From Spirochaetota bacterium (GTDB lineage: Bacteria > Spirochaetota > UBA4802 > JAFGDQ01): DNA of 64,000 nucleotides. Below, one piece after another: positions 30,821 through 44,966 of this stretch. The DNA lies in contig JAZDKB010000019.1 of the NCBI GenBank assembly GCA_043803405.1, positions 171,840 through 235,839 of the forward strand, given 5' to 3'. The first letter of the stretch is position 1. Each line of letters starts with the position of its first letter. The notes beneath the pieces are model-generated. The model did not search any database, had not been told where the DNA came from, and was given only the letters and a program-made list of their open reading frames with translations. Position numbers and translations under genes: made by a program.

Positions 30821-31091
30821 TGAGACCGGCAGGATCTCCGGCGAATATGTCGAATCCGTTCGGTTTTATCTTCTTGAGAAAGCATTCTGCCGGAGATTTT
30901 TGCAGCAGGCTGTCAGATACTATCTTTTTCGCTGCGGGACAAAAACGCTGCTGAAAGAAATCTAACCTTGTATTAAAATTTTCACTCGGACAAAATAAGG
31001 ACAACTCAGACAGTCCTCGAAAATTGTAATAATTTATGATCTATCCTAAGTTCGTTTGTTATGTTACTGAGGATATGGGATGCAATTTTAA

Positions 31092-32069
31092 TTATTCCTT
31101 AACCTTGCTATCGAAGCTTTCATCCTCTTTATATTTTCGTTTGAGTTTCCCTGAAATAATTCCTACTAAACTTTCACCGTATAACATAAAAATAAGCCCG
31201 CTGATAATGAAAGGTATACTGAGAGCAAGCAGGGGCGCCGGATTTTCGCGGCCAAGCGCGAGTCCAAGCAAAACTGCGATAAGCGGATTCACGATCGTAT
31301 AGCTTACTATCCTGATTGAAGGTTCGTGCGCAATGAGATACGTGTAAGCGTAATATGCCGCGCTGCCCATAATACTTAAATACAATAATGAGAAAGCAGA
31401 TCTGTGACTTATATTACTTATAAGTTCAGGAAGCGGCTGATACAGGAACTGCGACATTACAAATGCAATTAAACCTGCAATTATCATTTGAAGGCCGCTG
31501 TTTACTAAATTGTTCGGATACACTTTAAGCATGTGACCTATGCTTGTCGCAAACGACCATGAAATTAAACCGCCTAATGTTAGTATGATATACGGGTCAA
31601 TCGAAGAGAACGGATTTTTTCCTGTATATAAAATTGCCGTCACCCCGAGAAAACCCAGAATTATTCCAAGGAGACGGACTCTGGACAGTTTTTCTTTAAA
31701 AAACATCCTGTTGAAAACAGCAACGCTGAAAGGAGTTGCTGAAATAATAATTGCCGAAAGATAGCTGTCGATACGCAGAAGGCCTGCGGATACAAGGCCG
31801 CTGCCTCCTATAAGAAGGAATATACCGAAGAATGAGGCGGATAAAAATTCTCTGATGGTCGGCATTCTGTTTAGCTTTCGCGTGGCCAGCGATATGAGTA
31901 TGAATCCCAGGCCGCCGAAAAAGAAGCGTGTGCTTACCAGATAATATACGGGGAATGATTCAACTGCCCAGCGCATTGCCAGGTAAGTTGATCCCCATAC
32001 AATATAAATTGTAAGGTAAGCAAAGATAACAGGAAGTTTGGGAACAATTTTAAAAATCATTATGACCAA
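31092..32069 (-). CDS. DMT superfamily transporter (EamA family)
   Basis: 325 aa with 10 TM helices in two EamA repeats. The N-terminus IVWGSTYLAMRWAVE is typical. Confidence 0.85.
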   Translation of the reverse strand: MVIMIFKIVPKLPVIFAYLTIYIVWGSTYLAMRWAVESFPVYYLVSTRFFFGGLGFILISLATRKLNRMPTIREFLSASFFGIFLLIGGSGLVSAGLLRIDSYLSAIIISATPFSVAVFNRMFFKEKLSRVRLLGIILGFLGVTAILYTGKNPFSSIDPYIILTLGGLISWSFATSIGHMLKVYPNNLVNSGLQMIIAGLIAFVMSQFLYQPLPELISNISHRSAFSLLYLSIMGSAAYYAYTYLIAHEPSIRIVSYTIVNPLIAVLLGLALGRENPAPLLALSIPFIISGLIFMLYGESLVGIISGKLKRKYKEDESFDSKVKE

Positions 32070-32215
32070 TTTCTATAAGGCATAGTGCTTTTTATTGTAA
32101 TTATATTTAAGCACTGAGAGCACAAAAACGCAGACACTTGCAAAGAAAGGGATGAATAGATTTTATTTCTAAGCATATAATTTTGAATTCTTGCCGGGTA
32201 AATTAATATACCGTA

Positions 32216-33064
32216 CTAGACATTTACTATCATAGTATCATACGCAAAAGTAATATTGCCGTATCCCTGGTCTTTCAGAAATATTTCTGCTTTTTTTAAA
32301 TCGTCGTATGAAATCTCATCTTCAATATGGTATATAATTACCTGTGAGGCATTCAGGCTGCGTATGACTTTAAGCGTTTGCTGAAATGTTGCTTCTCCTT
32401 TAAGGATTGGATGATTTTCCGGTATGCGCCGTTCGCCGTTAAAGAGATCAAATTCAATAATTCCCATAGGCAGAACTGCGAGGTCGAGTCCATGCAGCTC
32501 CGCGGGCGGATCCCATTTTAAAAGCTCGTCCATTGCAATTAAAACGCGTTTCCCGGAATTTTCAAATAAAAAAGCGTATACATAGTCTTCAGCCAGACGG
32601 AATGGCTTAATGTTCGTATCCCCGATTTGAACTGTATCCCCATCCGATAATTCGACCAGACGAATCAATCCCATCTTTTCAAAATACTTCAAATGATCCC
32701 ATGTCCCAAGCGTATCCCGGAATGTTTCGCCGACGCGCTGCGGCAGGTAGACATCTGTCCGGTCAATTCGTAACGGCCATTGGCGGAGGTTGAATTTAGA
32801 TTCCCAGAGCCTGCGTCCCATGACGTGATCCGGATGCCAGTGAGAATAGAAACACGCATTGATTTTTTTAACCCGGGAGCGGTTAAGTTCATCTTTAATT
32901 TCTTCGGGCGTATCGATAAGCACATCCGGTCCGTGTACGAACACGCTTGGTCCGCTGCGGCTGTACGGGATTCCTTTTTCCCGCGCCTGAATGCAGACCT
33001 TGCAATTGCAAAAGGGTTTAGGTACTGTCAGAGGTCCGGATGTTCCCAGAAATTCGATTTGCAT
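32216..33064 (-). CDS. MBL-fold metallo-hydrolase
   Basis: HxHxDH motif (YSHWHPDHVMG). 282 aa. Confidence 0.8.
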   Translation of the reverse strand: MQIEFLGTSGPLTVPKPFCNCKVCIQAREKGIPYSRSGPSVFVHGPDVLIDTPEEIKDELNRSRVKKINACFYSHWHPDHVMGRRLWESKFNLRQWPLRIDRTDVYLPQRVGETFRDTLGTWDHLKYFEKMGLIRLVELSDGDTVQIGDTNIKPFRLAEDYVYAFLFENSGKRVLIAMDELLKWDPPAELHGLDLAVLPMGIIEFDLFNGERRIPENHPILKGEATFQQTLKVIRSLNASQVIIYHIEDEISYDDLKKAEIFLKDQGYGNITFAYDTMIVNV

Positions 33065-33738
33065 TTTGTTTGCCTGTGTCCGATTATATGTTTAATCCGA
33101 GCAAACGTCTGTTATAGATGCTGTCCGGGATGATAACAGTGCCGGAATCTCATTAAATAGCAACTAATTTTCAATTTATATAATTAAAAAATTTTTAAAT
33201 TGGAAACCGCTTTTTATAATTTTGTTAATTTTTAAGATCAAGGATTATTCATATAATATGATACGGAATTTTTATATGAGATTTGTTATTCTGAGATATA
33301 ATAAAGGTTGAACCTGCATATTATTTAAAATTCAGCTTTAAAATAATCGGTTCTTAAAAAATTTGATAGAATTAATAAAAGTATACTATTATGATTTATT
33401 CTTGATAATTTTACGCTATCAATTTAACATTGCAATTGTAAATTTTTTTAAGTTGATTGTTTTTACCGGCTGATTATGGTGCTGCGCATTTTTAATATGT
33501 ATTCTTATGTGCAAGTAAATAAGTTTATTGCAGAACTGTTTTAAAAAAAATATCCCTCAAAATTATTTGATCCTGTTTTTCAACTGAATCAGAGTTGTTT
33601 TAGAGAAGGAATTTATTAATAAAAATTATGCATGCAAAGAATTTGTCGGAATTTAAAATAGTTTATATCCGGTTGAAACATCAGCGCCAATAAATCCCTA
33701 AAACAGGATTAATGTTTTGTTTTGCAAAGGAGAAAAAT

Positions 33739-34014
33739 ATGGAAGATAAAATAAAAGAAAACAGAAGAAAGATGGCGAAAGTGATCTCCAAGGCATGGAG
33801 CAGTGAATCGTTTAAAGAGAAGCTTATTTCAAATCCGAGAATGGTTCTGGCGGAAAACGGAATTACTGTGCCGGCAGATGTTGAATTAAAGGTTGTTGAG
33901 CAAACTGAAAAACTTATGTATATTGTTATACCATTTAGACCAGAGGATGCAGAGGGCGGGTCATGGATGACTGAAGACGATGCCTATGATATACCTTGTA
34001 TTCGTTGCGTATAA
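33739..34014 (+). CDS. RiPP precursor peptide, NHLP (nitrile hydratase leader peptide) family; leader ends ...PEDAEGG, predicted core SWMTEDDAYDIPCIRCV
   Basis: The leader KAWSSESFKEKLISNPRMVLAENGITVPADVELKVVEQTEKLMYIVIP closely matches the NHLP family consensus (KAWsD.aFk..Ll.nPkavLae.Gv.vPegvelkvve.t.dtlylVlP). The ATG at 33739 has an aggag SD. A GG motif precedes the Cys-containing C-terminus. Biosynthetic genes lie immediately downstream. Confidence 0.8.
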   Translation: MEDKIKENRRKMAKVISKAWSSESFKEKLISNPRMVLAENGITVPADVELKVVEQTEKLMYIVIPFRPEDAEGGSWMTEDDAYDIPCIRCV

Positions 34015-34191
34015 AGTTACTTTAGAGAAACAGGTCTGGTTATAAGTAGAGTTGTGTCTGTGATGTTTTTGACTGCTTTTTTAGTGAGGTGACCAGCTTT
34101 TAAAGGAATGAAACTCCATCATTTGTTATATTTAAGCTTTGGGTGTCCAGCACATCAACTATTCCTATATGCTTGCGGGGTATAAATTGTC

Positions 34192-35181
34192 GTGATTGCT
34201 TCCCTTGTGCCGCGCGAATTGAAGATTGAAATTACAAATAACTGCAATCTGCATTGTACCTTTTGTTCTCTGGGCGGGAAGATATCTTCGGATATTTGCT
34301 TTATGCCGGAGGAGGAAGTTCTGCGCTGGATAGACTGGGCAGTCGATAATAATATGCGCTATGTGCGTTTTACCGGCGGGGAGGCCATGATGCATCCGCA
34401 GATAGAGATGTTTTGCTATTATGCGTACCGGCTGGGACGCCTTATCATTCTGAATACTAACGGAATGGGGGATGACAAACTTTACAGGAAAATTCTTCGT
34501 GTTGTATACGATATGCGTATTAGCATGCCGACTCTTGATGCAGTGCGTATGGATAAACTTACCTGCGGAAAGGACGTGCTTGTAAAAAAGAAAAATGTGA
34601 TCGGACTGGCGCTGGAAACGGGTGTGCCACGCATAAGTCTTTTAACGCCTTTGCTGCCGGAGCTGCACGGAAGCCTGGAACAATTCGTTCTTTTTGTTAA
34701 AACTTCACCCAGGCTATTCTGGCTGCCGCTGCGTTACGAGTCTAGCCCGACAGCCCCCCGTCCATGGACGCAGTCAGATGCACAGGCCTTTGCCGAGGAG
34801 ATGGCTGATCTAATGCGCCGTTATCCGGAAAAGGCGAAGGGGATTTACCTGGCTATGCCGTTTTGCGGGATAAAGCCGGCAAGCCTTGGCGCATTCATAT
34901 TTCACGGGCGAACGGAGGATTGCGGCCCCTTCGCGGCCCTGAACGTTAATGTCAGCGGCCGTATGCAGGCATGTTTTAATGTGGGTGAAACGGACGGCAT
35001 CCCGGCGCTTTCCGAGATTTACAATTGCCCTGAAATATGCGCCTGTGCCTCTATTGATACATTGCCTGACGAATGCCGGTGCTGTAAGTATGTTGCCCGA
35101 TGCGCCGGAGGCTGCCGCAAGCCATATAGCATGGTCCGGCACGGCGGTCGGCAGATCGATTATCTGGCAGGATTTGTGTAA
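34192..35181 (+). CDS. radical SAM enzyme with C-terminal SPASM/twitch domain (RiPP maturase)
   Basis: CxxxCxxC at residues 17-24 (CNLHCTFC). The C-terminal Cys-rich region CPEICACASIDTLPDECRCCKYVARCAGGCRK fits the auxiliary Fe-S SPASM pattern. GTG start. Confidence 0.8.
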   Translation: MIASLVPRELKIEITNNCNLHCTFCSLGGKISSDICFMPEEEVLRWIDWAVDNNMRYVRFTGGEAMMHPQIEMFCYYAYRLGRLIILNTNGMGDDKLYRKILRVVYDMRISMPTLDAVRMDKLTCGKDVLVKKKNVIGLALETGVPRISLLTPLLPELHGSLEQFVLFVKTSPRLFWLPLRYESSPTAPRPWTQSDAQAFAEEMADLMRRYPEKAKGIYLAMPFCGIKPASLGAFIFHGRTEDCGPFAALNVNVSGRMQACFNVGETDGIPALSEIYNCPEICACASIDTLPDECRCCKYVARCAGGCRKPYSMVRHGGRQIDYLAGFV

Positions 35182-35218
35182 CAGGCCGGCTGCTCGTGCA
35201 TCATTTCATGGTATTGTT

Positions 35219-37483
35219 ATGAATTATTATAAAATTAAAACCGGTAAAGCCGTAGTAGCAGACGGCGACAGCTTGTTTCTGCTTGATGAAACAAGCCAAA
35301 AGAAAATTACATCAGAATTAATGTCCGGGTTGATGCGTCTCATCAGCCGTGGGCCTGCCGATGAAGAGGAACTCGTCTCTGCATTGGAAGATCGTTTTTC
35401 TCCGGTACGGATATACTATGCGCTTGTTCAGCTTGAAAAGCTGGGTTTAATAGTTAAAGATAATCGTCCTGAATCGCAAACTAATTTATTCAGAGAAAAA
35501 CTGTTTAGGCAGAATGGGAGCGATTGCCGGCAGCTTCGGAAACCTGCATTGCCTGTAAGGATATTTTCGATCGCAGGTGCGGAATCTTCTGCCGATGTTC
35601 TTTCTGAAGCGTTGAAACGTTCGGATCTGATGCAAGTTGAACGTCCGGATGACTGGCATACTGAAAAAATATCTTCCAACTGCCTTTACATTGCAGTAAC
35701 ACCCGATTATCTTGAACCGGAACTGGAGGCTTTTGGGCATCTGGCTTATAAAAGCGGAGTTCGCTGGCTGCCTGTTAAACTGGCAGGCGTGATACCGTGG
35801 ATAGGGCCATTGTTCGATAGGCAAGAGACAGCCTGTATTGAGTGCCTGCTTGACAGGGTGAAAGGGCACAGGCGGCTGGAAGCAAAACAAATCCGAGAGG
35901 ATGGAGCAAAGCAATCACTTCGTCTTTCAGCGGGACAGACTTTTTATTCGTTTGAAGTCGCAGCAGGGCTTTTGTCTGTGGAACTGGAAAAAATTGCGAC
36001 GGACTGTAAATCGGAATTAGCAGGCGGAATGTTTACAATCGATTTCCGGTCTTTTAAATTTGACAGGCATGCTTTTATAAAACGTCCGCAGTGTCCCGCA
36101 TGCGGAAATATTATTAAAGGAAATATAAAAACCGGAGTTTTTCCTGCTGAGGCGATGCATTTGCAATCGCGGGCAAAATCGGATCACCGTGACGGCGGTG
36201 AACGTATATGTTCGGCTGTTGAAACGCTTAAGAAATATAATCATTTGATCAGTCCGGTTACAGGCATTGTGGGAGAATTAAAACCAGTAGAAGGAATTCC
36301 GCCGTGTTTCGGCAGTGTGATAAGAAGCAGGTGGATTATCCGCAGCGGAGAAAGTGCGGAAAGAAAAAATAATGCGCGTTTATCGGCTACCGGTTTCAGC
36401 ACAGGCAAAGGGAAGACTGAGCAGCAGGCGCTGGCCAGCGCACTTGGTGAGGCTGTAGAGCGTTACTGCTCGCAGCACGAGGGCTATGAAACACGCATCC
36501 GAGCATCTTTCGCGGAGCTTGGCGACCCGGCGATTCATCCTTATAGCCTGATGGGCTTCAGCGAAAGGCAGTATTCTGAGCGTGAATCATGGCGCCGGAA
36601 AGGGGACACTTCGTATGTGCCTGAGCCTTACGAAGCTTCATTGCTGATTGACTGGTCGCCTGCATGGTCGCTGACTCAGAAGCGCTGGAAGCTCATCCCG
36701 AGCGCTTTTGCTTATTATTCCTACCCGCGTGATGGCGGCGGCGATATTTGCCGCGGGTGCAGCAACGGCGTGGCTGCCGGCAATTGCATAGAAGAGGCAA
36801 TAATGCAGGGCTTCTTTGAGCTGGTAGAACGCGATGCCACTGCAATGTGGTGGTATCATAAACTACGGAAACCATCTGTGGATTGGCTAAGTTTTGGCTC
36901 TTCTTTCACAGCTTCCGTTGATGCACAAATCAGGAAAATGGGGATGAAACTTGAAGTACTCGATCTGACAAACGATCTCGGCATACCCGTGTTCTCAGCC
37001 AATCTTTTTATGTGTGATGAAGGCAACAGTTTTATCTCAATGGGATTAGGCTGCCACTGTGATCCGTATATTGCGCTTGAGCGTGCTATAGCGGAGCTTG
37101 GACAGCTCTGGACACAAATGAATACGGACGATTCCGGCCGCAGATTTACAGAAAGCCTGCGCAGCATAGGATCATTTTTAAGGGCTGATCCCGGTCGGAC
37201 TCCAATGACATATTTCGATTTTCCAGAAAAACAGCGCAGTGATTTTCTCGACGACATTAATGATACCGTGCGGAACTTGAGCGAAAGGGGACTGGAAATG
37301 CTGGTGATGGATTTGACCCGCCCCGACGTCGGTTTCCCGGTAGCGCGTGTTATCGTCCCGGGCCTTATCCATTTTTGGCCGCGTTTCGGATGCAGCCGTC
37401 TATTTGAAGTTCCCAAAGCTGCAGGCTGGATTGACAAGGAAGCAGGTGAAGATGACCTTAATCCGGTGCCGTTCTGCTGGTGA
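35219..37483 (+). CDS. fused E1-like (ThiF-like, with RRE) / YcaO cyclodehydratase (PatD/TruD-type azoline synthase)
   Basis: N-terminal winged-helix/E1-like domain with two CxxC pairs (TACIEC, RPQCPAC), as in the Zn-tetrathiolate of PatD-like proteins. YcaO signature SATGFSTGKGKTEQQALASALGEAVERY. Start set at the ATG at 35219. The longer ORF from 34949 would overlap the rSAM gene by 230 bp. Confidence 0.85.
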   Translation: MNYYKIKTGKAVVADGDSLFLLDETSQKKITSELMSGLMRLISRGPADEEELVSALEDRFSPVRIYYALVQLEKLGLIVKDNRPESQTNLFREKLFRQNGSDCRQLRKPALPVRIFSIAGAESSADVLSEALKRSDLMQVERPDDWHTEKISSNCLYIAVTPDYLEPELEAFGHLAYKSGVRWLPVKLAGVIPWIGPLFDRQETACIECLLDRVKGHRRLEAKQIREDGAKQSLRLSAGQTFYSFEVAAGLLSVELEKIATDCKSELAGGMFTIDFRSFKFDRHAFIKRPQCPACGNIIKGNIKTGVFPAEAMHLQSRAKSDHRDGGERICSAVETLKKYNHLISPVTGIVGELKPVEGIPPCFGSVIRSRWIIRSGESAERKNNARLSATGFSTGKGKTEQQALASALGEAVERYCSQHEGYETRIRASFAELGDPAIHPYSLMGFSERQYSERESWRRKGDTSYVPEPYEASLLIDWSPAWSLTQKRWKLIPSAFAYYSYPRDGGGDICRGCSNGVAAGNCIEEAIMQGFFELVERDATAMWWYHKLRKPSVDWLSFGSSFTASVDAQIRKMGMKLEVLDLTNDLGIPVFSANLFMCDEGNSFISMGLGCHCDPYIALERAIAELGQLWTQMNTDDSGRRFTESLRSIGSFLRADPGRTPMTYFDFPEKQRSDFLDDINDTVRNLSERGLEMLVMDLTRPDVGFPVARVIVPGLIHFWPRFGCSRLFEVPKAAGWIDKEAGEDDLNPVPFCW

Positions 37484-37486
37484 GAA

Positions 37487-38860
37487 ATGAGCGAATCAAA
37501 GGATATAATTGAAACAAATATGCAAGCATCTAATATTTTTTTCTCCGTAAGGTTGCGCGATGATATTATTGCAGACCGTCCGGGGAACGGGCGAATCATA
37601 TTTATTAAAAACGGGATTAAATGTACGGATATTCCGGCGGACCATCCGCTTATCGAATCTTTGATTGCCAAATGGGTCACAGAGGCGACAATTGACCAGG
37701 AAGCCTCATCGGCATCCAATCCTTCAGTCATATATTATATTTTCGAAAAGCTGTTCTCCCTCGGCCTCCTTAAGGCACGATGCACACTTAACGAAAAATC
37801 CCTGTTCTCTGTTGTACCTGCCCCGGAGTGGCAGGCATGGCAGGGAAAGCTGCCTGCATCAGCGCATAGGCTTTCGCCATGCTTATGCCTACGGCAGAAT
37901 GAGCATGATTTTATTCTGGAGATGCCGCTTTCACAAAAGAAATGCATTATACATGATGGAAGGTGCATTATCTGGCTAATGGAGATTGTACAAGGAAGCA
38001 TTTCCATGCCTGTAAATGATGCAGCCCGTTCAGCATTTTATCTGGCATTATGGATGATGAATGCCCTTATATGTGATGAGGATTCCGATCCTTCCTGGGA
38101 GTTCCACGACTTGCTGTTCTTTCATCATTCAAGCATCGGCTTTCATGATGATGCTACCGGAGCGACCTGCAGGTTTAAGGATAAATCTTTGCCTGAGCCG
38201 CTTTTAAAGGCGATCACGGGGTTTTGTGTTTCGCTTCCTGAACCCGATGAGCGGCTTATGAAAAAGCTGAATACGCCTTTTGCCGAAGTGCTTGCAAAGC
38301 GCCGCAGCAGCCGTAATGTATGCGGATCACCGGCCCTCGAAGAAATAGGCGCTTTGCTTTTTGCATCAGCCCGCATTCAGAGCGTCAGGGACGATTCTAC
38401 GCATAGTTATTTTGTTTCATTGCGGCCTTCTCCCAGCGGTGGTGCATTGCATTCCATTGAAATATATTTATTTGTACGTCAATGCACAAATCTTGAAAGC
38501 GGAGTCTGGCGCTATGATCCAGGCCGGCATCAGGTGGAATCTGTTGCAGCGGACAATGAATTATTTGAAGCCTACATGAACAGCAATCCGTATGCTGCGG
38601 GACCGAACACAGCGCCTCCGTATCTTCGATTAGTGATGACATCTCGTTTTCAGCGGAACTCGTGGAAATACGAAAAGATCGCCTACCGTCTTGTTCTGCA
38701 GGATCTGGGCTGCCTGTATCAGACTATAAGTCTGGCAGCTGCAGCTCTGGGACTGGCAACCTGCATTCTCGGCGCAGTTGAAGCAAAGCGCCTTGGAGAG
38801 ATAATGAAGCTGGAACCTCTTATCGAACCGGTCATCGGGGAGATGATGTTATCGTCTTAG
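37487..38860 (+). CDS. SagB/ThcOx-type FMN-dependent dehydrogenase (azoline oxidase)
   Basis: C-terminal nitroreductase-like fold with LAKRRSSRN...LRPSPSGGALHSIEIY, typical of SagB-family TOMM dehydrogenases. Starts 4 bp after the cyclodehydratase stop. Confidence 0.8.
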   Translation: MSESKDIIETNMQASNIFFSVRLRDDIIADRPGNGRIIFIKNGIKCTDIPADHPLIESLIAKWVTEATIDQEASSASNPSVIYYIFEKLFSLGLLKARCTLNEKSLFSVVPAPEWQAWQGKLPASAHRLSPCLCLRQNEHDFILEMPLSQKKCIIHDGRCIIWLMEIVQGSISMPVNDAARSAFYLALWMMNALICDEDSDPSWEFHDLLFFHHSSIGFHDDATGATCRFKDKSLPEPLLKAITGFCVSLPEPDERLMKKLNTPFAEVLAKRRSSRNVCGSPALEEIGALLFASARIQSVRDDSTHSYFVSLRPSPSGGALHSIEIYLFVRQCTNLESGVWRYDPGRHQVESVAADNELFEAYMNSNPYAAGPNTAPPYLRLVMTSRFQRNSWKYEKIAYRLVLQDLGCLYQTISLAAAALGLATCILGAVEAKRLGEIMKLEPLIEPVIGEMMLSS

Positions 38861-39085
38861 CAAAAGTCTATTTCTCCAGCTCATTCAATGAATATGTTTT
38901 AATCTACTGAAGTTGGAGTTTAATATTTATCTTAAGATTAAAAGTTATTCTTTGAATAAGGGTACATTCTAAATTATCCGGTTTCTTCTTAAATTATTTT
39001 ATTTGTATTTTTTAATTTTTTATATTACCATAGATATTGATTCATGGCACTCCAGTTCTCTTTAGATTATTTCCTGGAGTTAATA

Positions 39086-40228
39086 ATGAAAAGAAAACCG
39101 GCCATAAGTATTCTTTTCCTGGTTACCTTAATAATATTTGCGTTATGCAGCAAGGAGAATGTGTGGGAGAAAGTCAACCGGACCGACTCTCCTGCTTATT
39201 TTGTTACTGTTCTTTCTACAACTCCCTCAAGCAATGAAACCTATGTTCCGACTAATTCACTTATAACGGTCACTTTCAGCGACAACATTCTGGCATCGAC
39301 ATTAAATGCGGCTACTATCTCCGTAAATAATGGTGTGACACCTTTAAGTATTTCATATGATTCAAATACAAAAACAGTCACATATTCGCCGCAGGCCAGC
39401 CTTTCCCAGAATACAACCTATACAGTAATTTTATCCAGAGAAATTACAAATTCAGCGGGTGAAGGACTATCTGTAGATTATTCATGGAGTTTCACTACAG
39501 TTTCCGGACTTGTACCCGAAATAGATTTATTCCAGGGTATATTTCCGTTAAATACGGGCAGCTTATACGACTTTGGGACAATACTGGATACGGAGACCCG
39601 CGCAATTGTCTTTACAATTAACAATTCAGGCGCAGGAAACCTTACAGTAAATAGTATTAGCCTGGGAGGGATTGATGCCGGCGAATTTACTCTTACAACC
39701 GGCGTTTTGCCTGCTACAGTTATAGCCGGCGGCCAGACCACATTTACTGCTACCTTTGACCCGAATTCAGCTGGAGTAAAGAACGCAAGTATTATTATAA
39801 GTAACGATGATGGCAACGAATCTTCATATACTGTTTATATAAAGGGCTATGCAGCCGGTACGGCCCAGCCGGAAATAATGCTCAGGCAGGGACTGACTGA
39901 GTTTGTTGCAGGATACAATTACGATTTCGGGACAGTGCTCGTAGGTTCCTCCAGTTCTGCCGTTACCTTTACAATTTATAACATCGGCAATGATGTCTTG
40001 AATATAAGCTCTATTGCTCTTGATTCCGGTGACCCGGACATTGGCAACTTCATCCTGGATACATCAGGCACTTCCTTTATTGTTGCAGCTCAATCAAACA
40101 CAACTTTTACAGGCCGCTTTGCTCCAATCGAAGCGGGAGTCGTACTCGTCCAGCTTCGAATTGAGAGCAATGACATAGATGAAAGTTCCTTTATGTTCAA
40201 ATTTAAAGGCAGGGGGGCAAATCCATAA
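39086..40228 (+). CDS. lipoprotein with N-terminal Ig-like domain and two tandem ~110-aa beta-sandwich repeats
   Basis: Signal peptide plus lipobox (LIIFALC). The internal repeat (YDFGT[IV]L...FTI.N.G...L....I.L.G.D...F.L) occurs twice. Start at the ATG after a ggag SD. Confidence 0.55.
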   Translation: MKRKPAISILFLVTLIIFALCSKENVWEKVNRTDSPAYFVTVLSTTPSSNETYVPTNSLITVTFSDNILASTLNAATISVNNGVTPLSISYDSNTKTVTYSPQASLSQNTTYTVILSREITNSAGEGLSVDYSWSFTTVSGLVPEIDLFQGIFPLNTGSLYDFGTILDTETRAIVFTINNSGAGNLTVNSISLGGIDAGEFTLTTGVLPATVIAGGQTTFTATFDPNSAGVKNASIIISNDDGNESSYTVYIKGYAAGTAQPEIMLRQGLTEFVAGYNYDFGTVLVGSSSSAVTFTIYNIGNDVLNISSIALDSGDPDIGNFILDTSGTSFIVAAQSNTTFTGRFAPIEAGVVLVQLRIESNDIDESSFMFKFKGRGANP

Positions 40229-40231
40229 GAT

Positions 40232-42829
40232 ATGGCTAACTCCATAAAATTTAAAAAAGGCAAAGAAGAAAAATATCTTTTTTATAATTCTTATAAAAAA
40301 ATTCCCGATCTGAATAGAAATAAAGCAGAGCTGGAAAAAGAACTCATGATTGATAGAATGAGTCGTGAAGGAATAAAGACCTGTCTCGTTGTATATTCGG
40401 GGAATGAATGTAAGGATATATGCGGGCATATGATTTCGATTTATAAAAAGCACGGTATAGAGATGATAACCCTGTATTTTCAGTTCCGCGGAACCGAAAA
40501 TTATAAACTGATTAAAAAAGCTGCGGATAATCTTTTGCAGCGGCTTGGCAAACAAAACTGTATATTGCTGTCTTTCGACGATAACAAGCTTTTGCATTTA
40601 TTTATTGTTTTATTTTTTATTAATATAAAAAAATCTCCTTTGCAGGCTGTCAGCACCGCCAGGCATCTTTCCACAATCGGAAAATATGCAGGTTTTGAAG
40701 AAAAAATTATTAATGGTTTTTACCGGTATTTTATAGCACATTCGGTAAAGGACAATCATAAACATTCCGCTCCCAAACCTTGGAATAAAAAAAATGAATC
40801 CCCTGAAGATGTATCCGGATCTGACCGCACAGAGAATACAAATGGCCGGGATAAAAAAATTTTACCTGTTGAAGACCGTGAAAAATTTGTAATTGTTAAT
40901 GGGAATGGCAAGCCTGCTGAAGGTTTGAAAATACATCACGTTTCTTTTTCTACGGTACTACACTGGCTGGGTTTATTCAGGCAGTCAATCCAGTTCAAAC
41001 TCATGCTGATCGTTTCCGGTTTGCTTACATCCGCAATGCTTGTAATGATACTGCTCGCGACGCATTTCTTTAAATCGGACAATGAGACACGCGTGCAGGA
41101 GAATAATCTGAACATATCTACTATTATGGCGGACAAGATAAAGACCGACATTCTTGCAGTTGCCGGAAAAGCAAAGTCTATAGCATTGACTTCCTTTCAG
41201 GAAGGCGGCCTGAACAGGGAAACAGGAATTTCCGCGGATTTGTTGATCAAAGACGAAAAGGATTTCGTTTATGTCGGGCTGGCTAAAAGAGTAAATCATA
41301 TTCCATCCGTACGGTCAATAAAAGGAATAATCAACAGTAGTTATATCGAAGGTAAAGGTCTGCGCGGAAAGGATCTAGAAGTTCTTAGCCTGACACGCGA
41401 AAAGTTATTTTCCAGGTCGTACAATTCAGAAATTATAGTTGCCAATCTTTCCAGGGAAATCAGGTCTCCGCTTCTTGCTCTTAGTTTCCCGTTTGAGATA
41501 ATAAAAGGGTCGGTGGAGTCGGTCCTTCTCGTGTATATTAATCCGAACAGGCTTATAAAAAATTTTTCAAGTTCCGGGATTACGGAAACATTTTTAGTGA
41601 ACCTTGACGGAGACGTACTGGCGCATACGGATGCAAACCTTTTATTGATGAACACAAATTTTTTAAACAGTCCCATAATTAAGAAAATGTTGTCAAGCAC
41701 GATCGACAACGGCCAGACGAGATATAGAGGAGAAGACAACAGGGTATACCTCGGCTCCTTTAAAAAAGTGGGAATAGGCGGTCTCGGCATCGTTTCAACT
41801 GTTCCGGAAGCAAAGGCTTTTGAAGAAGTGTATAATATTCAGAAAAGAAATATTTATATTCTTTTGATAATACTCAATATTTCCATACTTGCGGTATTTT
41901 TCTTCAGCAAAACCATGACAAAGCCAATTATTGAGCTTGTCGGCGAAACCGAGAAAATCAAGAACGGGAATTATAATGTCCGGCTTAAGCCAAGGACAAA
42001 AGATGAGATAGGCATTCTGACAGATTCATTTGCGGATATGAGCAAAGGCCTTCAGGAGCGCGAAAGAATAAAAACAGCTTTTGGAAAATTCGTCAACCCT
42101 GAAATAGCCGAAATGGCTATGCATCAGGAAATGCAGCTCGGCGGAGAAAAGAAAAATGCGGTCGTCATGTTCTGCGACATAAGATCATTCACAGCCATAT
42201 CGGAAAGCCTTTCCCCTGAACATGTCGTTGAATTTCTTAATAATTATCTCACGCGAATGGTGCAATGTATAAATGATAATTTCGGCGTTGTGGATAAATT
42301 TATCGGCGATGCTATAATGGCGGTCTGGGGCACGCCTGTTTCGAGCGGTAATGACATTCAGAATGCCGTTCACAGTTCGCTGCAGATGAGATACCAGCTG
42401 GAGCTTTTTAACATGGACAGGGGCATCCCCGGTAAACCGGTTATAAAGATGGGGTGCGGAATAAATGCCGGCCCTGTTATCGCCGGCCAGATAGGGTCAT
42501 CTGACAGAATGGAATATACTGTGATCGGCGACACTGTTAATCTCGCGTCGCGCATCGAAGGTTTGAACAAGGCATTCGGTACGGATATCCTCCTGACTGA
42601 AGAGACTTACAGGCAAATCAGTAAAACAGTGAAAGCTGTAAAAATGCCTGCAGTAACTGTGAAGGGTAAAAAAGATCCGCTTTATGTTTACGCAGTACTC
42701 GGCAGTGCCGACGATCCGGATACACCGGGCGATCTCAGCCAGCTGCGGAAACTGCTGAGAACAAACTCGAATGCGCCCGCGGGAGAAGGAGTAGTGCTCA
42801 ATGAAAGCAAATATAAAGTTATTGAATAG
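40232..42829 (+). CDS. membrane-bound class III adenylate/guanylate cyclase with periplasmic sensor and HAMP domain
   Basis: The C-terminal cyclase domain (VVMFCDIRSFTAISESL...FIGDAIMAVWG...) is preceded by a HAMP domain and two TM helices flanking a ~280-aa periplasmic domain. An N-terminal ~240-aa cytoplasmic region is of unknown function. Confidence 0.85.
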   Translation: MANSIKFKKGKEEKYLFYNSYKKIPDLNRNKAELEKELMIDRMSREGIKTCLVVYSGNECKDICGHMISIYKKHGIEMITLYFQFRGTENYKLIKKAADNLLQRLGKQNCILLSFDDNKLLHLFIVLFFINIKKSPLQAVSTARHLSTIGKYAGFEEKIINGFYRYFIAHSVKDNHKHSAPKPWNKKNESPEDVSGSDRTENTNGRDKKILPVEDREKFVIVNGNGKPAEGLKIHHVSFSTVLHWLGLFRQSIQFKLMLIVSGLLTSAMLVMILLATHFFKSDNETRVQENNLNISTIMADKIKTDILAVAGKAKSIALTSFQEGGLNRETGISADLLIKDEKDFVYVGLAKRVNHIPSVRSIKGIINSSYIEGKGLRGKDLEVLSLTREKLFSRSYNSEIIVANLSREIRSPLLALSFPFEIIKGSVESVLLVYINPNRLIKNFSSSGITETFLVNLDGDVLAHTDANLLLMNTNFLNSPIIKKMLSSTIDNGQTRYRGEDNRVYLGSFKKVGIGGLGIVSTVPEAKAFEEVYNIQKRNIYILLIILNISILAVFFFSKTMTKPIIELVGETEKIKNGNYNVRLKPRTKDEIGILTDSFADMSKGLQERERIKTAFGKFVNPEIAEMAMHQEMQLGGEKKNAVVMFCDIRSFTAISESLSPEHVVEFLNNYLTRMVQCINDNFGVVDKFIGDAIMAVWGTPVSSGNDIQNAVHSSLQMRYQLELFNMDRGIPGKPVIKMGCGINAGPVIAGQIGSSDRMEYTVIGDTVNLASRIEGLNKAFGTDILLTEETYRQISKTVKAVKMPAVTVKGKKDPLYVYAVLGSADDPDTPGDLSQLRKLLRTNSNAPAGEGVVLNESKYKVIE

Positions 42830-44966
42830 CAGCATTGTTGTCACAACCTTATGCGTTTTACTGACAATACTGTTTTCAGCCATGCTTTATTCGAGTTACA
42901 GTACAAAAAAAGATATTATGTTAAAGGATAATGTCGGCGTCCTGTCCTTTAAAAAGGAGTCAGCTCTCAGGAAATACGGCGGCCAGGTGGTCTGGGAAGA
43001 TATTACGCAGGATATGCCTGTATACAATGGCGACACGCTTAGAACAGAAAAATTTTCCGAAGCTGTTATAAAACTTAAAGACGGAACACGCATAACCATG
43101 GAATCCGACAGCATGATAATTTTGTCGTTCTCAAAGGAGAGCATTGATATCGGGTTTAATTACGGATCGATATCCGCAAAAAGAGATGCCGGATCGGAGC
43201 AATTCGGGAGACTAAAAATTGATGCAGGCCGTATGAGTCTTAATGTCGGGCAAAGCAGCCTGCAGCTTAAAGGCCGCAGCGATGCGGCAATGAATGTTTC
43301 CGTGCACGAAGGAAGCGCGGACATTGTCAGCGGGAACAAAGTTGTAAAGCTAACGAACAGGGAGCAGGCGGTTATAACTAAAAATTCCGACGAGCTCCAT
43401 ATATCGCCTGTTTCATTAAGCCTGCTCGAACCTGAAAACAGCAAATATATAACCGCCGCATCTGACACTGTAAATATCAGCTTTAAATGGCAAAAGAACG
43501 GGAAAGCCGGCAGCACAACCTTCGAACTTTCAGACGATTCATCATTTAGTGATAAACTTGTCGCCAGGGAGATTAACCGGAATAGCCTGGAGCTTAACAT
43601 CAGGCCGGGTATTTATTACTGGAGATTGCAGGCTGATCAGGATAAGACGGATAAAAAAATTTACAGCGATATTTTTAAATTTACTTTTATAAAAGAGCCT
43701 CCTGTTAAGCTTGTTCATCCGGCAGATGGACAGCGCTTTTCATTTTATTCAGCAGCGCCTCCAATAAGCTTTCAATGGCAAAAAAGCCCGACCGCATCAT
43801 TGTACAGACTTGTAGTTTCCGGAGATGCTGCTTTTTCAAAAGCGCATATTGCAGGAGATACTGACGGGGAGACTTTGACCGACTTTACTCTCGGTGAGGG
43901 AACATGGTACTGGAAGGTTATCGTAAAGACGCCTTTCAGCGAGGATTATATCGATACCGGCGCTGTTAAAAGAAGCTTTTCAATATTGAAAATGAAAAAG
44001 CTTCCACAACCGGAACTGGTTTTTCCTGAGGAGAACAGGAAATTTCAGGTTGAGTGGTTAAGGAAAAACAGGCTGTATTTCAACTGGGAAAAATCGCAGG
44101 AATTAGTTTCATCTGAATTTATTTTGGCCGGCGACAAAGATTTTAAAAATATTTTAATACGCAAAATTATTCCCGGCAGCTACATTTCTCTCGAAGAGCT
44201 TCTTCCCGGTTCATACTTCTGGAAAGTAATATCCTGGACGCAGAAAAACGATCTCCGGCTTTCATCGGCCGCCAGGCATTTTTCTGTATTAAAGGAGATG
44301 AAAATATCCCTTCTGTCTCCGCCCGATAAATTAAAACTTGAAAAGCCTTTTAGCCTGAATAAATTGCCTGTTCAGTTCAAATGGGAATGCAATAACTCAG
44401 AAGCTTTATGTTCTTTTGAAATGTCGGGTTCCCGGGACTTCGGAGAAAATATATTAAAAAAAGAAATTAAAGAAAATGTTTTTAACCTTGATGATATAGG
44501 AAACGGCACTTTTTACTGGAGAGTGAATGCGATGGATGAACGCCGGAACATTGTACAAATAACTCCTGTCCGTGAATTGCATATCATCCCGACTCTGGAT
44601 AAACCGGTGCCGATTGTTCCGCAGAATCAAAGTATTATTAATATGAGAGACAGAAATTCACTCGAAATGTCATGGAGCAGGATCACAGGCGCTCAGGTAT
44701 ATATCGTAAGATTATATTATCTTCACGGCACGGAATTTTTAAAAGTCCATGAGGCAAGGACTATACAAAACAGTCTTAGGTTGACCAACCTGTCAATGCT
44801 GAACAGGGGCAGGTTTTCATGGACTGTAACAGGCAGCCGCATGGAGAAGGATGACGGAACAAAGGCAATCAACAGCCCTGAGGGCAAAGGTTATTTTGAA
44901 ATAACACTGGGCAAAAAACTCGACGAACCTAAAATAATATCCCCGGATATTCAGTACAGACAATAA
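42801..44966 (+). CDS. FecR-domain protein with multiple ~85-aa tandem beta-sandwich repeats
   Basis: Signal/TM anchor, then a FecR-like domain (VVWEDITQDMPVYNGDTLRTEKFSEAVIKLKDGTRI). At least 5 repeats share the motif F.W....A..Y...[VI]S.D..F ... G.[YW]YW[RK]V. Confidence 0.6.
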   Translation: MKANIKLLNSSIVVTTLCVLLTILFSAMLYSSYSTKKDIMLKDNVGVLSFKKESALRKYGGQVVWEDITQDMPVYNGDTLRTEKFSEAVIKLKDGTRITMESDSMIILSFSKESIDIGFNYGSISAKRDAGSEQFGRLKIDAGRMSLNVGQSSLQLKGRSDAAMNVSVHEGSADIVSGNKVVKLTNREQAVITKNSDELHISPVSLSLLEPENSKYITAASDTVNISFKWQKNGKAGSTTFELSDDSSFSDKLVAREINRNSLELNIRPGIYYWRLQADQDKTDKKIYSDIFKFTFIKEPPVKLVHPADGQRFSFYSAAPPISFQWQKSPTASLYRLVVSGDAAFSKAHIAGDTDGETLTDFTLGEGTWYWKVIVKTPFSEDYIDTGAVKRSFSILKMKKLPQPELVFPEENRKFQVEWLRKNRLYFNWEKSQELVSSEFILAGDKDFKNILIRKIIPGSYISLEELLPGSYFWKVISWTQKNDLRLSSAARHFSVLKEMKISLLSPPDKLKLEKPFSLNKLPVQFKWECNNSEALCSFEMSGSRDFGENILKKEIKENVFNLDDIGNGTFYWRVNAMDERRNIVQITPVRELHIIPTLDKPVPIVPQNQSIINMRDRNSLEMSWSRITGAQVYIVRLYYLHGTEFLKVHEARTIQNSLRLTNLSMLNRGRFSWTVTGSRMEKDDGTKAINSPEGKGYFEITLGKKLDEPKIISPDIQYRQ

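Follow-up and report, generated by a model that had tools for sequence, protein, structure and literature searches.

The precursor gene and its cassette

In this study, we describe the putative substrate gene of a pathway for a peptide made on the ribosome and then modified after translation (RiPP) in a 64-kb window (the whole stretch of DNA analysed, 64,000 nucleotides) of a Spirochaetota metagenome-assembled genome (MAG). The gene, an open reading frame (ORF) at 33739..34014 on the plus strand, encodes an NHLP-family precursor and is followed on the same strand by genes for a radical S-adenosylmethionine (SAM) enzyme with a SPASM domain, a fused leader-binding/YcaO protein and a SagB-type dehydrogenase, in that order. 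The radical SAM/SPASM gene between the precursor and YcaO genes, the most distinctive partner, had been left out of an earlier description made from the letters of the stretch (the sequence-only reading). We consider it probable that the ORF is the substrate of this four-gene cassette and is modified by the steps proposed below. The features of the locus are as follows.

33140..33700, plus strand: AT-rich non-coding region, presumed promoter/regulatory region (GC 0.24 at 33200-33599)
33727..33732, plus strand: Shine-Dalgarno sequence AAGGAG, read from the sequence, 6 nt from the ATG at 33739
33739..34014, plus strand: NHLP-family RiPP precursor, 91 amino acids (aa) plus stop (translation, TIGR03793, 26 homologues)
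33739..33936, plus strand: folded NHLP domain, residues 1 to about 66 (AlphaFold2, AF2, model)
33955..33960, plus strand: Gly73-Gly74, the leader end proposed earlier; near-invariant in the close subfamily, absent in Syntrophus-type homologues
33961..34011, plus strand: 17-residue tail SWMTEDDAYDIPCIRCV, residues 75-91 (conservation, non-synonymous and synonymous divergence (pN and pS), gapless alignment to the Syntrophus tail)
33997..34011, plus strand: invariant C-I-R-C-V with Cys87 and Cys90, predicted modification sites (homologue alignment)
34192..35181, plus strand: radical SAM/SPASM enzyme of 329 aa that begins with GTG and lacks an N-terminal RiPP recognition element (RRE) (PF04055 53.4 bits, Cys motifs)
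35219..37483, plus strand: fused leader-binding (E1-like)/YcaO cyclodehydratase, 754 aa, start MNYYK (TIGR03604, TIGR03882, PF02624)
37487..38860, plus strand: SagB-type flavin mononucleotide (FMN) dehydrogenase (azoline to azole), 457 aa (TIGR03605, Nitroreductase)

Translation of the precursor gene gives MEDKIKENRRKMAKVISKAWSSESFKEKLISNPRMVLAENGITVPADVELKVVEQTEKLMYIVIPFRPEDAEGGSWMTEDDAYDIPCIRCV, with the C-terminus ...PEDAEGGSWMTEDDAYDIPCIRCV followed by the stop; Cys87 is encoded by tgt at 33997-33999 and Cys90 by tgc at 34006-34008. Residues 12-69 match the NHLP leader model TIGR03793 with 71.9 bits (curated cut-off 50.9), and the Pfam model NHase_alpha scores 49.8 bits (cut-off 27.2). The AF2 model places helices at residues 2-39 and strands at 51-54 and 60-64, and its predicted local distance difference test score (pLDDT) drops from 71-87 to about 50-60 past about residue 66. 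The fused protein scores 300.4 bits with TIGR03604 (cut-off 219.25), 119 bits with TIGR03882 (cut-off 36.9) and 297 bits with PF02624, while the SagB protein scores 162.7 bits with TIGR03605 (cut-off 78.4) and 45.3 bits with the Nitroreductase domain. A SagD-type YcaO protein with a leader-binding domain, together with a SagB-type FMN dehydrogenase, places the cassette among the clusters for thiazole/oxazole-modified microcins (TOMMs), or linear peptides that contain azol(in)es (LAPs). With TIGR03793 above its cut-off and a YcaO protein in the same cassette, the earlier proposal of an NHLP-type RiPP precursor adjoining a YcaO enzyme was borne out.

The ORF of 91 aa exists as the sequence-only reading had described it, and the preference given there to the start at 33739 holds: AAGGAG lies 6 nt upstream and most homologues begin at the equivalent position, the alternative ATG at 33712 being preceded only by AGGA at a 3-nt spacing. 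The GenBank gene call for this MAG is a 100-aa form (33712-34014, P0001, named 'NHLP leader peptide family RiPP precursor') that starts 9 codons further 5', which is why an exact-sequence look-up of the 91-aa form returned no match. That the precursor is present as a single copy was likewise confirmed, as no other ORF of at least 20 aa within 33065-34200 resembles it and the NHLP profile, run over all window ORFs of at least 40 aa, matched 33739..34014 alone. The upstream region is AT-rich and contains no precursor-like ORF, as had also been noted. Neither a riboswitch nor a leader RNA was matched when 31000-36000 was scanned with Rfam at E<=1; sigma-70-like hexamers in 33000-34400 were not above shuffle expectation, no intrinsic terminator was found in the same interval and no sigma-54 consensus was found upstream of the precursor on the plus strand. 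Folding of the 177-nt spacer between the precursor and radical SAM genes was no better than that of shuffles (z +1.25).

Homology searches recovered 26 homologous precursors, and in at least 10 independent loci the precursor lies immediately upstream of the radical SAM gene. The order precursor, radical SAM, YcaO, SagB is identical in loci L001, L005, L006, L007, L011, L021-L027 and L026, and the hosts of the four-gene cassette include Syntrophus buswellii DM-2, a MAG assigned to Syntrophus and Syntrophorhabdaceae, besides many metagenome contigs that carry it. The sequence-only reading had proposed to search for small homologous ORFs beside YcaO genes in related genomes, and the recurrence of the cassette in Syntrophus, Syntrophorhabdaceae and metagenomes answers that search positively. 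Clustering of conserved neighbours of the window-type cassette gave nothing beyond the four genes.

The conserved tail and the end of the leader

The hypervariable, Cys-containing core that had been expected behind the leader was recovered in part: the tail does contain Cys, but hypervariability was not found in the close family. Averaged over pairs of homologues, identity is 0.758 for the tail and 0.706 for the leader, pN is 0.18 and 0.20, respectively, and the synonymous sites of the tail are saturated (pS 0.95). Judged from these divergences, the tail is under purifying selection and conserved at least as well as the leader; it is clearly functional. Hypervariable cores are confined to the wider family linked to the radical SAM enzyme.

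Cys90 is kept in all tail-bearing homologues and Cys87 in all except P0021, where it is replaced by Ser, a residue that can also be heterocyclised. Because Cys90 is universal and Cys87 near-universal, and because the tail pN of 0.18 stands against a saturated pS, the CxxC arrangement is, on this comparison, more than chance. Common to all homologues with the window form of the cassette (type I, below), apart from the Ser of P0021, are a run of acidic residues and, after it, C-[IVA]-[RG]-C-x at the extreme C-terminus, and Cys87 and Cys90, named earlier as potential heterocyclisation sites, are still the obvious predicted ones. The residues of the window tail with potential for heterocyclisation are Ser75, Thr77, Cys87 and Cys90. 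The closest group has GG-SWQCEDDCYDLPCIRCS as its tail consensus, from which the window tail departs at position 4 (Thr instead of Cys) and at position 9 (Ala instead of Cys); across close homologues position 4 is Cys or Thr, and position 9 is Cys, Ala, Thr or Ser. The Syntrophus group ends in ...KPGEELLVKPMMSDETDEISCVRCV, without GG, W or Y, and its tail KPMMSDETDEISCVRCV aligns gaplessly with the window precursor over the last 17 residues. P0222 ends in ...DGKRGPWMCEDDAYDLPCAGCD and also lacks GG (...DGKRGPWMCEDD...). The five acidic residues counted earlier in the window tail number in fact four (E79, D80, D81 and D84). The unmodified 17-mer has a computed monoisotopic mass of 2015.84 Da, and with two thiazoles about 1.98 kDa, within the 1.9-2.0 kDa with azole shifts that had been predicted.

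The sequence-only reading had placed the end of the leader at Gly73-Gly74. The Gly pair does exist and is near-invariant among the 26 closest homologues, but it is absent in the Syntrophus group and P0222, in which the same cassette is kept. Alignment to known NHLP precursors, which that reading had recommended, confirmed the leader but not a boundary after Gly74. The match to TIGR03793 reaches no further than position 63 of the 77 in the model, corresponding to residue 69, and the end of the model, where the canonical GG lies, extrapolates to about residue 83. In a MAFFT alignment the canonical leader ends, ...AGG and ...ERLAA, fall opposite window residues 78-82, and in an hmmalign alignment to a profile built without the subfamily the canonical AGG falls opposite A82-Y83-D84. 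GG73-74 thus sits 8-10 residues upstream of the canonical position of the leader end, and follows the fold-closing FRP by 5 residues, whereas in canonical NHLPs the GG lies 12-15 residues past it. The residues upstream of GG73-74 include Pro at -7 and -10 and Arg at -8, with no L(X)4L-type motif; in the MprE/MprC system, the RRE of the YcaO enzyme binds to an L(X)4L motif situated immediately ahead of the cleavage site (PMC12455567). The AF2 model of the precursor, of low confidence past about residue 66, did not settle the boundary.

GG73-74 is therefore probably not the canonical cleavage site, as far as alignment and position can indicate. The released or functional core may be only about 7-9 residues long, (Y)(D)IPCIRCV, and the acidic stretch GGSWMTEDDAYD more probably belongs to the leader, as its C-terminal end recognised by the enzyme, than to a 17-mer that is released, a role that would also explain the conservation of that stretch. 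The late boundary is a soft conclusion. If it holds, this branch does not follow the textbook rule that a leader ends in Gly-Gly, and core prediction from the 'first GG' in NHLP precursors can miss by 8-10 residues, which would be a lesson for annotation.

The radical SAM/SPASM enzyme and its wider family

The enzyme carries the CX3CX2C motif at C18/C22/C25 and a SPASM signature consisting of an invariant C225, C244-x11-G-x4-C261 and C295-x2-C-x5-C-x3-C308, with no Cys past C308, in the position of the canonical seventh (last) SPASM Cys. It has no RRE, since CX3CX2C starts at residue 18, the first strand spans residues 9-13 and the AF2 model (pLDDT 87.5) opens directly with the barrel. The nearest folds found by Foldseek were BlsE, SuiB (TMq 0.71), SkfB and PqqE; in the profile search, a near full-length alignment was obtained to anSME only. 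No curated family was matched above its cut-off: the best score was to MoaA (59 bits against 284), the MftC and PqqE models fell below cut-off, StsB and AlbA far below, and the SPASM epimerase YydG matched weakly (E 0.004). The enzyme shares with SuiB, SkfB, PqqE, CteB and anSME the radical SAM core and a C-terminal CX2CX5CX3C SPASM domain, and with anSME also the lack of an RRE, but differs from these SPASM maturases in its low identity to them (<=19%), in reaching none of their curated cut-offs, in having no N-terminal RRE and in the missing Cys past C308. It has the SPASM domain of sactipeptide and ranthipeptide maturases but no RRE, and there are sister clusters with Cys-free cores, so that it was not placed among them.

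The radical SAM family, as yet uncharacterised, comprises 70 protein clusters (E <= 1e-94) and 204 confirmed metagenome stretches. In all closer members, with at least about 47% identity to the enzyme of the window, the gene adjoins NHLP precursors; in a more distant branch (L037-L048, 36-42% identity) both NHLP and YcaO genes are missing from the vicinity, and this branch looks like a separate system. Three architectures were found, of which type I is the window form. Type II has an additional membrane protein of about 570 aa with an HExxH (HEFAHG) motif, encoded between the precursor and radical SAM genes (L020 5235-7004 and 10 further loci: L010, L012, L015-L019, L029, L034 and L050). This protein scores 161 bits with the daptide protease model (cut-off 300), has the character of an intramembrane metalloprotease and is, from its motif and position, the probable leader protease of type II; it is absent from the window-type cassette. 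The leaders of type II precursors end in (E/D)ERLAA and are followed by short, variable cores, and the primary precursor cores mostly have Cys at the penultimate position (ICY, ACH, SCS, PCN, GCV). Type III, found in Desulfovibrio inopinatus (L008 8001-12106) and one MAG (L010 8001-13525), consists of the radical SAM gene (about 50% identity), 2-3 tandem NHLP precursors and a stand-alone, E. coli-like YcaO gene (NF040716 162 bits, below cut-off), without SagB. Its cores have 3-8 residues and are Cys-free (SAF, SVF, MVDAFGIL, AIVFSATF and HWPYIYVI). SagB and the fused TOMM-type YcaO protein go with Cys-bearing cores, a pattern of gene content that supports thiazole formation in the window cassette.

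The candidate reactions of the radical SAM enzyme are epimerisation, C-terminal oxidative decarboxylation, formation of a C-C or C-S crosslink, and oxidation of Cys or Ser. Since enzymes of types I and II are 69% identical and those of type III about 50%, despite Cys-free cores, the reaction probably does not depend on Cys, and its target is probably the extreme C-terminus, because this is the only region common to all substrates. A Cys-to-Asp/Glu thioether of the ranthipeptide kind was downgraded as a candidate, given that enzymes of about 50% identity accompany the Cys-free cores of L008 and L010, if the chemistry is shared. Cys75 of the enzyme is invariant and lies outside any cluster motif; it could be a hydrogen donor, as in radical SAM epimerases.

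Several observations on precursors of the wider family were also made. A penultimate Cys is present in about 20 of about 39 distinct precursors beside the radical SAM family (L001-L053; GCV, ICY, ACH, SCS, PCN, RCV, SCW, ICK), and in all primary precursors for which the radical SAM enzyme of the cluster is at least 64% identical to that of the window. Most of the top 150 NHLP matches, P0218, P0225, P0236 and P0250 among them, are proteins of 150-400 aa with 2-4 tandem NHLP domains followed by a single GG and a core; P0218, for example, has four NHLP repeats and then AVAGG-WRRWRTRRWIRARG..., and such proteins are either real multi-domain leaders or merged gene calls. L029 8193-8498 and P0290 are precursors of the ERLAA/EQRVAA type with Gly/Asn-rich cores (GCGGNGGAGGNGGFGGVY; ...GNGGNGGTGSGGNGGAGGNGG...). 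The core of the L029 precursor ends in GGVY, which resembles the C-terminal GVY of the mycofactocin precursor.

Proposed maturation and alternative explanations

From the gene identities, the strict co-occurrence and the conservation of the tail that were observed, we infer the following sites, order of reactions and radical chemistry. The N-terminal ~66 residues would fold into a nitrile-hydratase-like leader domain, which would dock on the fused leader-binding/YcaO enzyme. The YcaO domain would then, using ATP, cyclodehydrate Cys87 and Cys90 to thiazolines, and perhaps also cyclise Thr77 (Cys in most homologues), after which the SagB flavoprotein would oxidise the thiazolines to thiazoles. 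The RRE-less SPASM enzyme would add one further radical modification within the last few residues. Two thiazoles, at Cys87 and Cys90, with a further radical modification near the C-terminus are thus the most likely outcome predicted from the genes; whether the leader is cut, and where, is a matter on which the alternatives below differ. If the model holds, one short C-terminal C-x-x-C-x motif has been preserved by selection across phyla, and a compact SPASM radical SAM enzyme always partners the cyclodehydratase in this branch. As Syntrophus buswellii DM-2, S. gentianae and D. inopinatus, hosts of the family, are in culture, direct tests of the product and of the radical SAM chemistry are feasible.

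The general class is known. NHLP-type TOMM precursors were defined in 2010 by Haft, Basu and Mitchell, with a Syntrophus aciditrophicus example (PMC2887384); the text of that paper contains no occurrence of 'radical SAM'. With the NHLP-type TOMM/LAP systems (TIGR03793) the window locus shares the nitrile-hydratase-alpha-like leader, an adjacent fused cyclodehydratase/docking protein (TIGR03882/TIGR03604), SagB and a Cys-bearing C-terminus; it differs in that the tail is conserved rather than hypervariable, the GG is off the end of the homology region, there is no ABC/C39 transporter, and an extra SPASM radical SAM gene stands between the precursor and the cyclodehydratase. The best experimental model for the steps from docking to thiazole is MprE/MprC/MprD, which has a structured NHLP leader, a YcaO enzyme and an FMN oxidase: there the leader is recognised by the YcaO enzyme, and YcaO and FMN oxidase form thiazoles in two steps (-20 Da), as reconstituted (PMC12455567). 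In the Mpr system there are ten precursors whose cores vary, the leader is 81 residues long and an L(X)4L motif precedes GG (PMC12455567), in contrast to the window, with no such motif before its GG, a single conserved tail and a radical SAM partner. Nostatin A and other proteusins also combine an NHLP leader, azoles and radical SAM enzymes in one pathway, but for nostatin A these enzymes are an epimerase resembling PoyD and a cobalamin methyltransferase of class B, the core has 30 residues and a LanM-like dehydratase is present (PMC11583998), whereas the window has a compact SPASM enzyme and a tail of 7-17 residues. The window precursor has the NHLP leader of proteusins, and the radical SAM enzyme beside it is of SPASM type without family assignment. 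Mycofactocin (MftA/MftC) and PQQ (PqqA/PqqE) offer a functional analogy only, in a short conserved C-terminal target, a SPASM enzyme and no exporter; those pathways have no YcaO or SagB and use a separate RRE chaperone, and the window enzyme is below the MftC and PqqE cut-offs. The cassette stands apart from the known kind in that its tail is conserved, the GG is displaced or missing, a SPASM enzyme is its constant partner and genes for export and cleavage are lacking. No characterisation of an NHLP, SPASM radical SAM and YcaO cassette, including those of Syntrophus and Desulfovibrio, was found in the literature, coverage of which was incomplete; the cassette is an uncharacterised sub-branch and a reasonable genome-mining lead.

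Some observations weigh against the proposed maturation. The four-gene cassette contains no protease or exporter, so that release is unexplained. The near-invariance of G73 and G74 in the close subfamily fits a real processing site there. Homology over residues 68-84 is weak, hmmalign having carried no sequence but that of the window precursor through this segment, and the argument for the late boundary rests mostly on length and position. Furthermore, tail positions 4 and 9, with their Cys/Thr and Cys/Ala/Thr/Ser alternation, could be modification sites of a 17-mer.

These points bear on the first alternative, in which the precursor is cut after Gly74 and a 17-residue acidic peptide with azoles at Cys87 and Cys90 (perhaps also at Ser75 and Thr77), of about 1.98 kDa, leaves the cell by export and acts in a microcin-like or metal-binding way. 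For NHLPs, Gly-Gly is the classic motif of cleavage (PMC2887384), both residues alternating at position 4 are heterocyclisable, the mass is as predicted, and an EamA-type transporter gene lies two genes upstream on the opposite strand, with another after the YcaO gene in D. inopinatus. The missing GG of Syntrophus-type homologues and P0222, and the distance of the GG from the canonical position together with the Pro residues and the lack of an L(X)4L-type motif (compare PMC12455567), argue against the cut. Export of a microcin-like product, the kind to which the sequence-only reading had compared the tail, found no support, as neither a C39/ABC transporter nor a protease is present in the cassette or among the annotated window genes; among the annotated larger genes of the 64-kb window, in which not every ORF is annotated, no C39 (double-glycine) transporter or other dedicated leader peptidase was found, and Pro at -7/-10 and Arg at -8 do not suit double-glycine processing either, for which hydrophobic residues at -4/-7/-12 before GG are characteristic. 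A tail that is not hypervariable would also be unusual for a competition peptide. We regard the exported 17-mer as possible but doubtful.

In a second alternative, the product is not released: a protein of about 10 kDa would keep the NHLP domain and use the modified tail as an intracellular redox or metal-binding prosthetic group, or a tiny C-terminal cofactor would be excised as in mycofactocin and PQQ. Purifying selection on the tail across phyla, the cassette without protease or exporter, the resemblance of the SPASM enzyme to PqqE in sequence and fold, the anaerobic hosts (Syntrophus, Syntrophorhabdaceae, the Spirochaetota MAG), the ferredoxin-domain gene downstream of the cassette in L001 and L011, and an orphan copy of the precursor among modA, NifX-like and MoaA/MoaC genes all favour it. 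This case is purely contextual, neighbours outside the four genes are not conserved, and the HExxH intramembrane protease of type II sister clusters implies release there; moreover, we know of no earlier case in which a protein cofactor of such a kind contains thiazoles. Such a retained product is unlikely on balance. The more specific idea that the cassette makes a conserved, cell-retained thiazole peptide or small protein serving anaerobes as a cofactor or metal-handling factor seems to us quite unlikely, though a cell-retained product of the radical SAM, YcaO and SagB trio would be a new class of RiPP-derived cofactor alongside PQQ and mycofactocin. In this idea the SPASM enzyme, lacking an RRE, would carry out a novel reaction at the C-terminus, one that the Cys-free clusters of the Desulfovibrio type would have in common with the window cassette. 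That the tail binds metal is a guess, hinted at by context: the orphan stands beside modA, and CorA/CDF genes occur in L011.

The orphan precursor (P0025, tail SWMCEDDCYDLPCVRCH) lies at L002 9968-10243 (the same as L004) on the Syntrophorhabdaceae chromosome OY762209.1 (5,508,164 bp), with no adjacent radical SAM, YcaO or SagB gene. Upstream of it are genes for ZnuA, an ArsP-like permease, DUF134, a NifX-like protein and an FmdB zinc-ribbon protein; downstream are modA (141.9 bits, cut-off 62.5) and then moaC, moaA and a molybdo-hydroxylase. No radical SAM/YcaO cluster was present among the matches traced to OY762209.1, by longest-contig fields only. The orphan would fit a stand-alone, small nitrile-hydratase-alpha-like protein whose unmodified Cys-rich tail binds metal, the ORF being no substrate and its adjacency to the enzymes incidental; this is very improbable, as the precursor strictly adjoins radical SAM and YcaO genes in every other locus examined, NHLP is an established leader family in which precursors far from their enzymes are known (PMC2887384), and the absence of the enzymes from the orphan genome was inferred from 'longest contig' fields alone.

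The annotated larger genes across the window are otherwise housekeeping genes. Flanking the cassette are a Liv-type ABC system, a weak CsgG-like match, an EamA-family transporter, an MBL-fold hydrolase, a choice-of-anchor-D protein, an adenylate cyclase and a FecR-domain protein. On the 3' side, 39044-44966 encodes a Big_5/choice-of-anchor-D surface protein, an 865-aa HAMP adenylate/guanylate cyclase and the FecR-domain protein, genes that are not conserved with the cassette elsewhere. The EamA-family gene of the window, two genes upstream of the precursor, spans 31092-32069 on the minus strand, and the one directly after the YcaO gene in D. inopinatus spans L008 12368-13216; the product is a possible exporter present in these two loci only. 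In two type I loci a protein of 363 aa, which carries a 2x[4Fe-4S] ferredoxin domain at its C-terminus and is absent from the window, is encoded downstream of SagB, in L001 (15065-16156) adjacent to it and in L011 (15527-16618) one gene on. The CorA/CDF genes of L011 lie upstream of its cassette.

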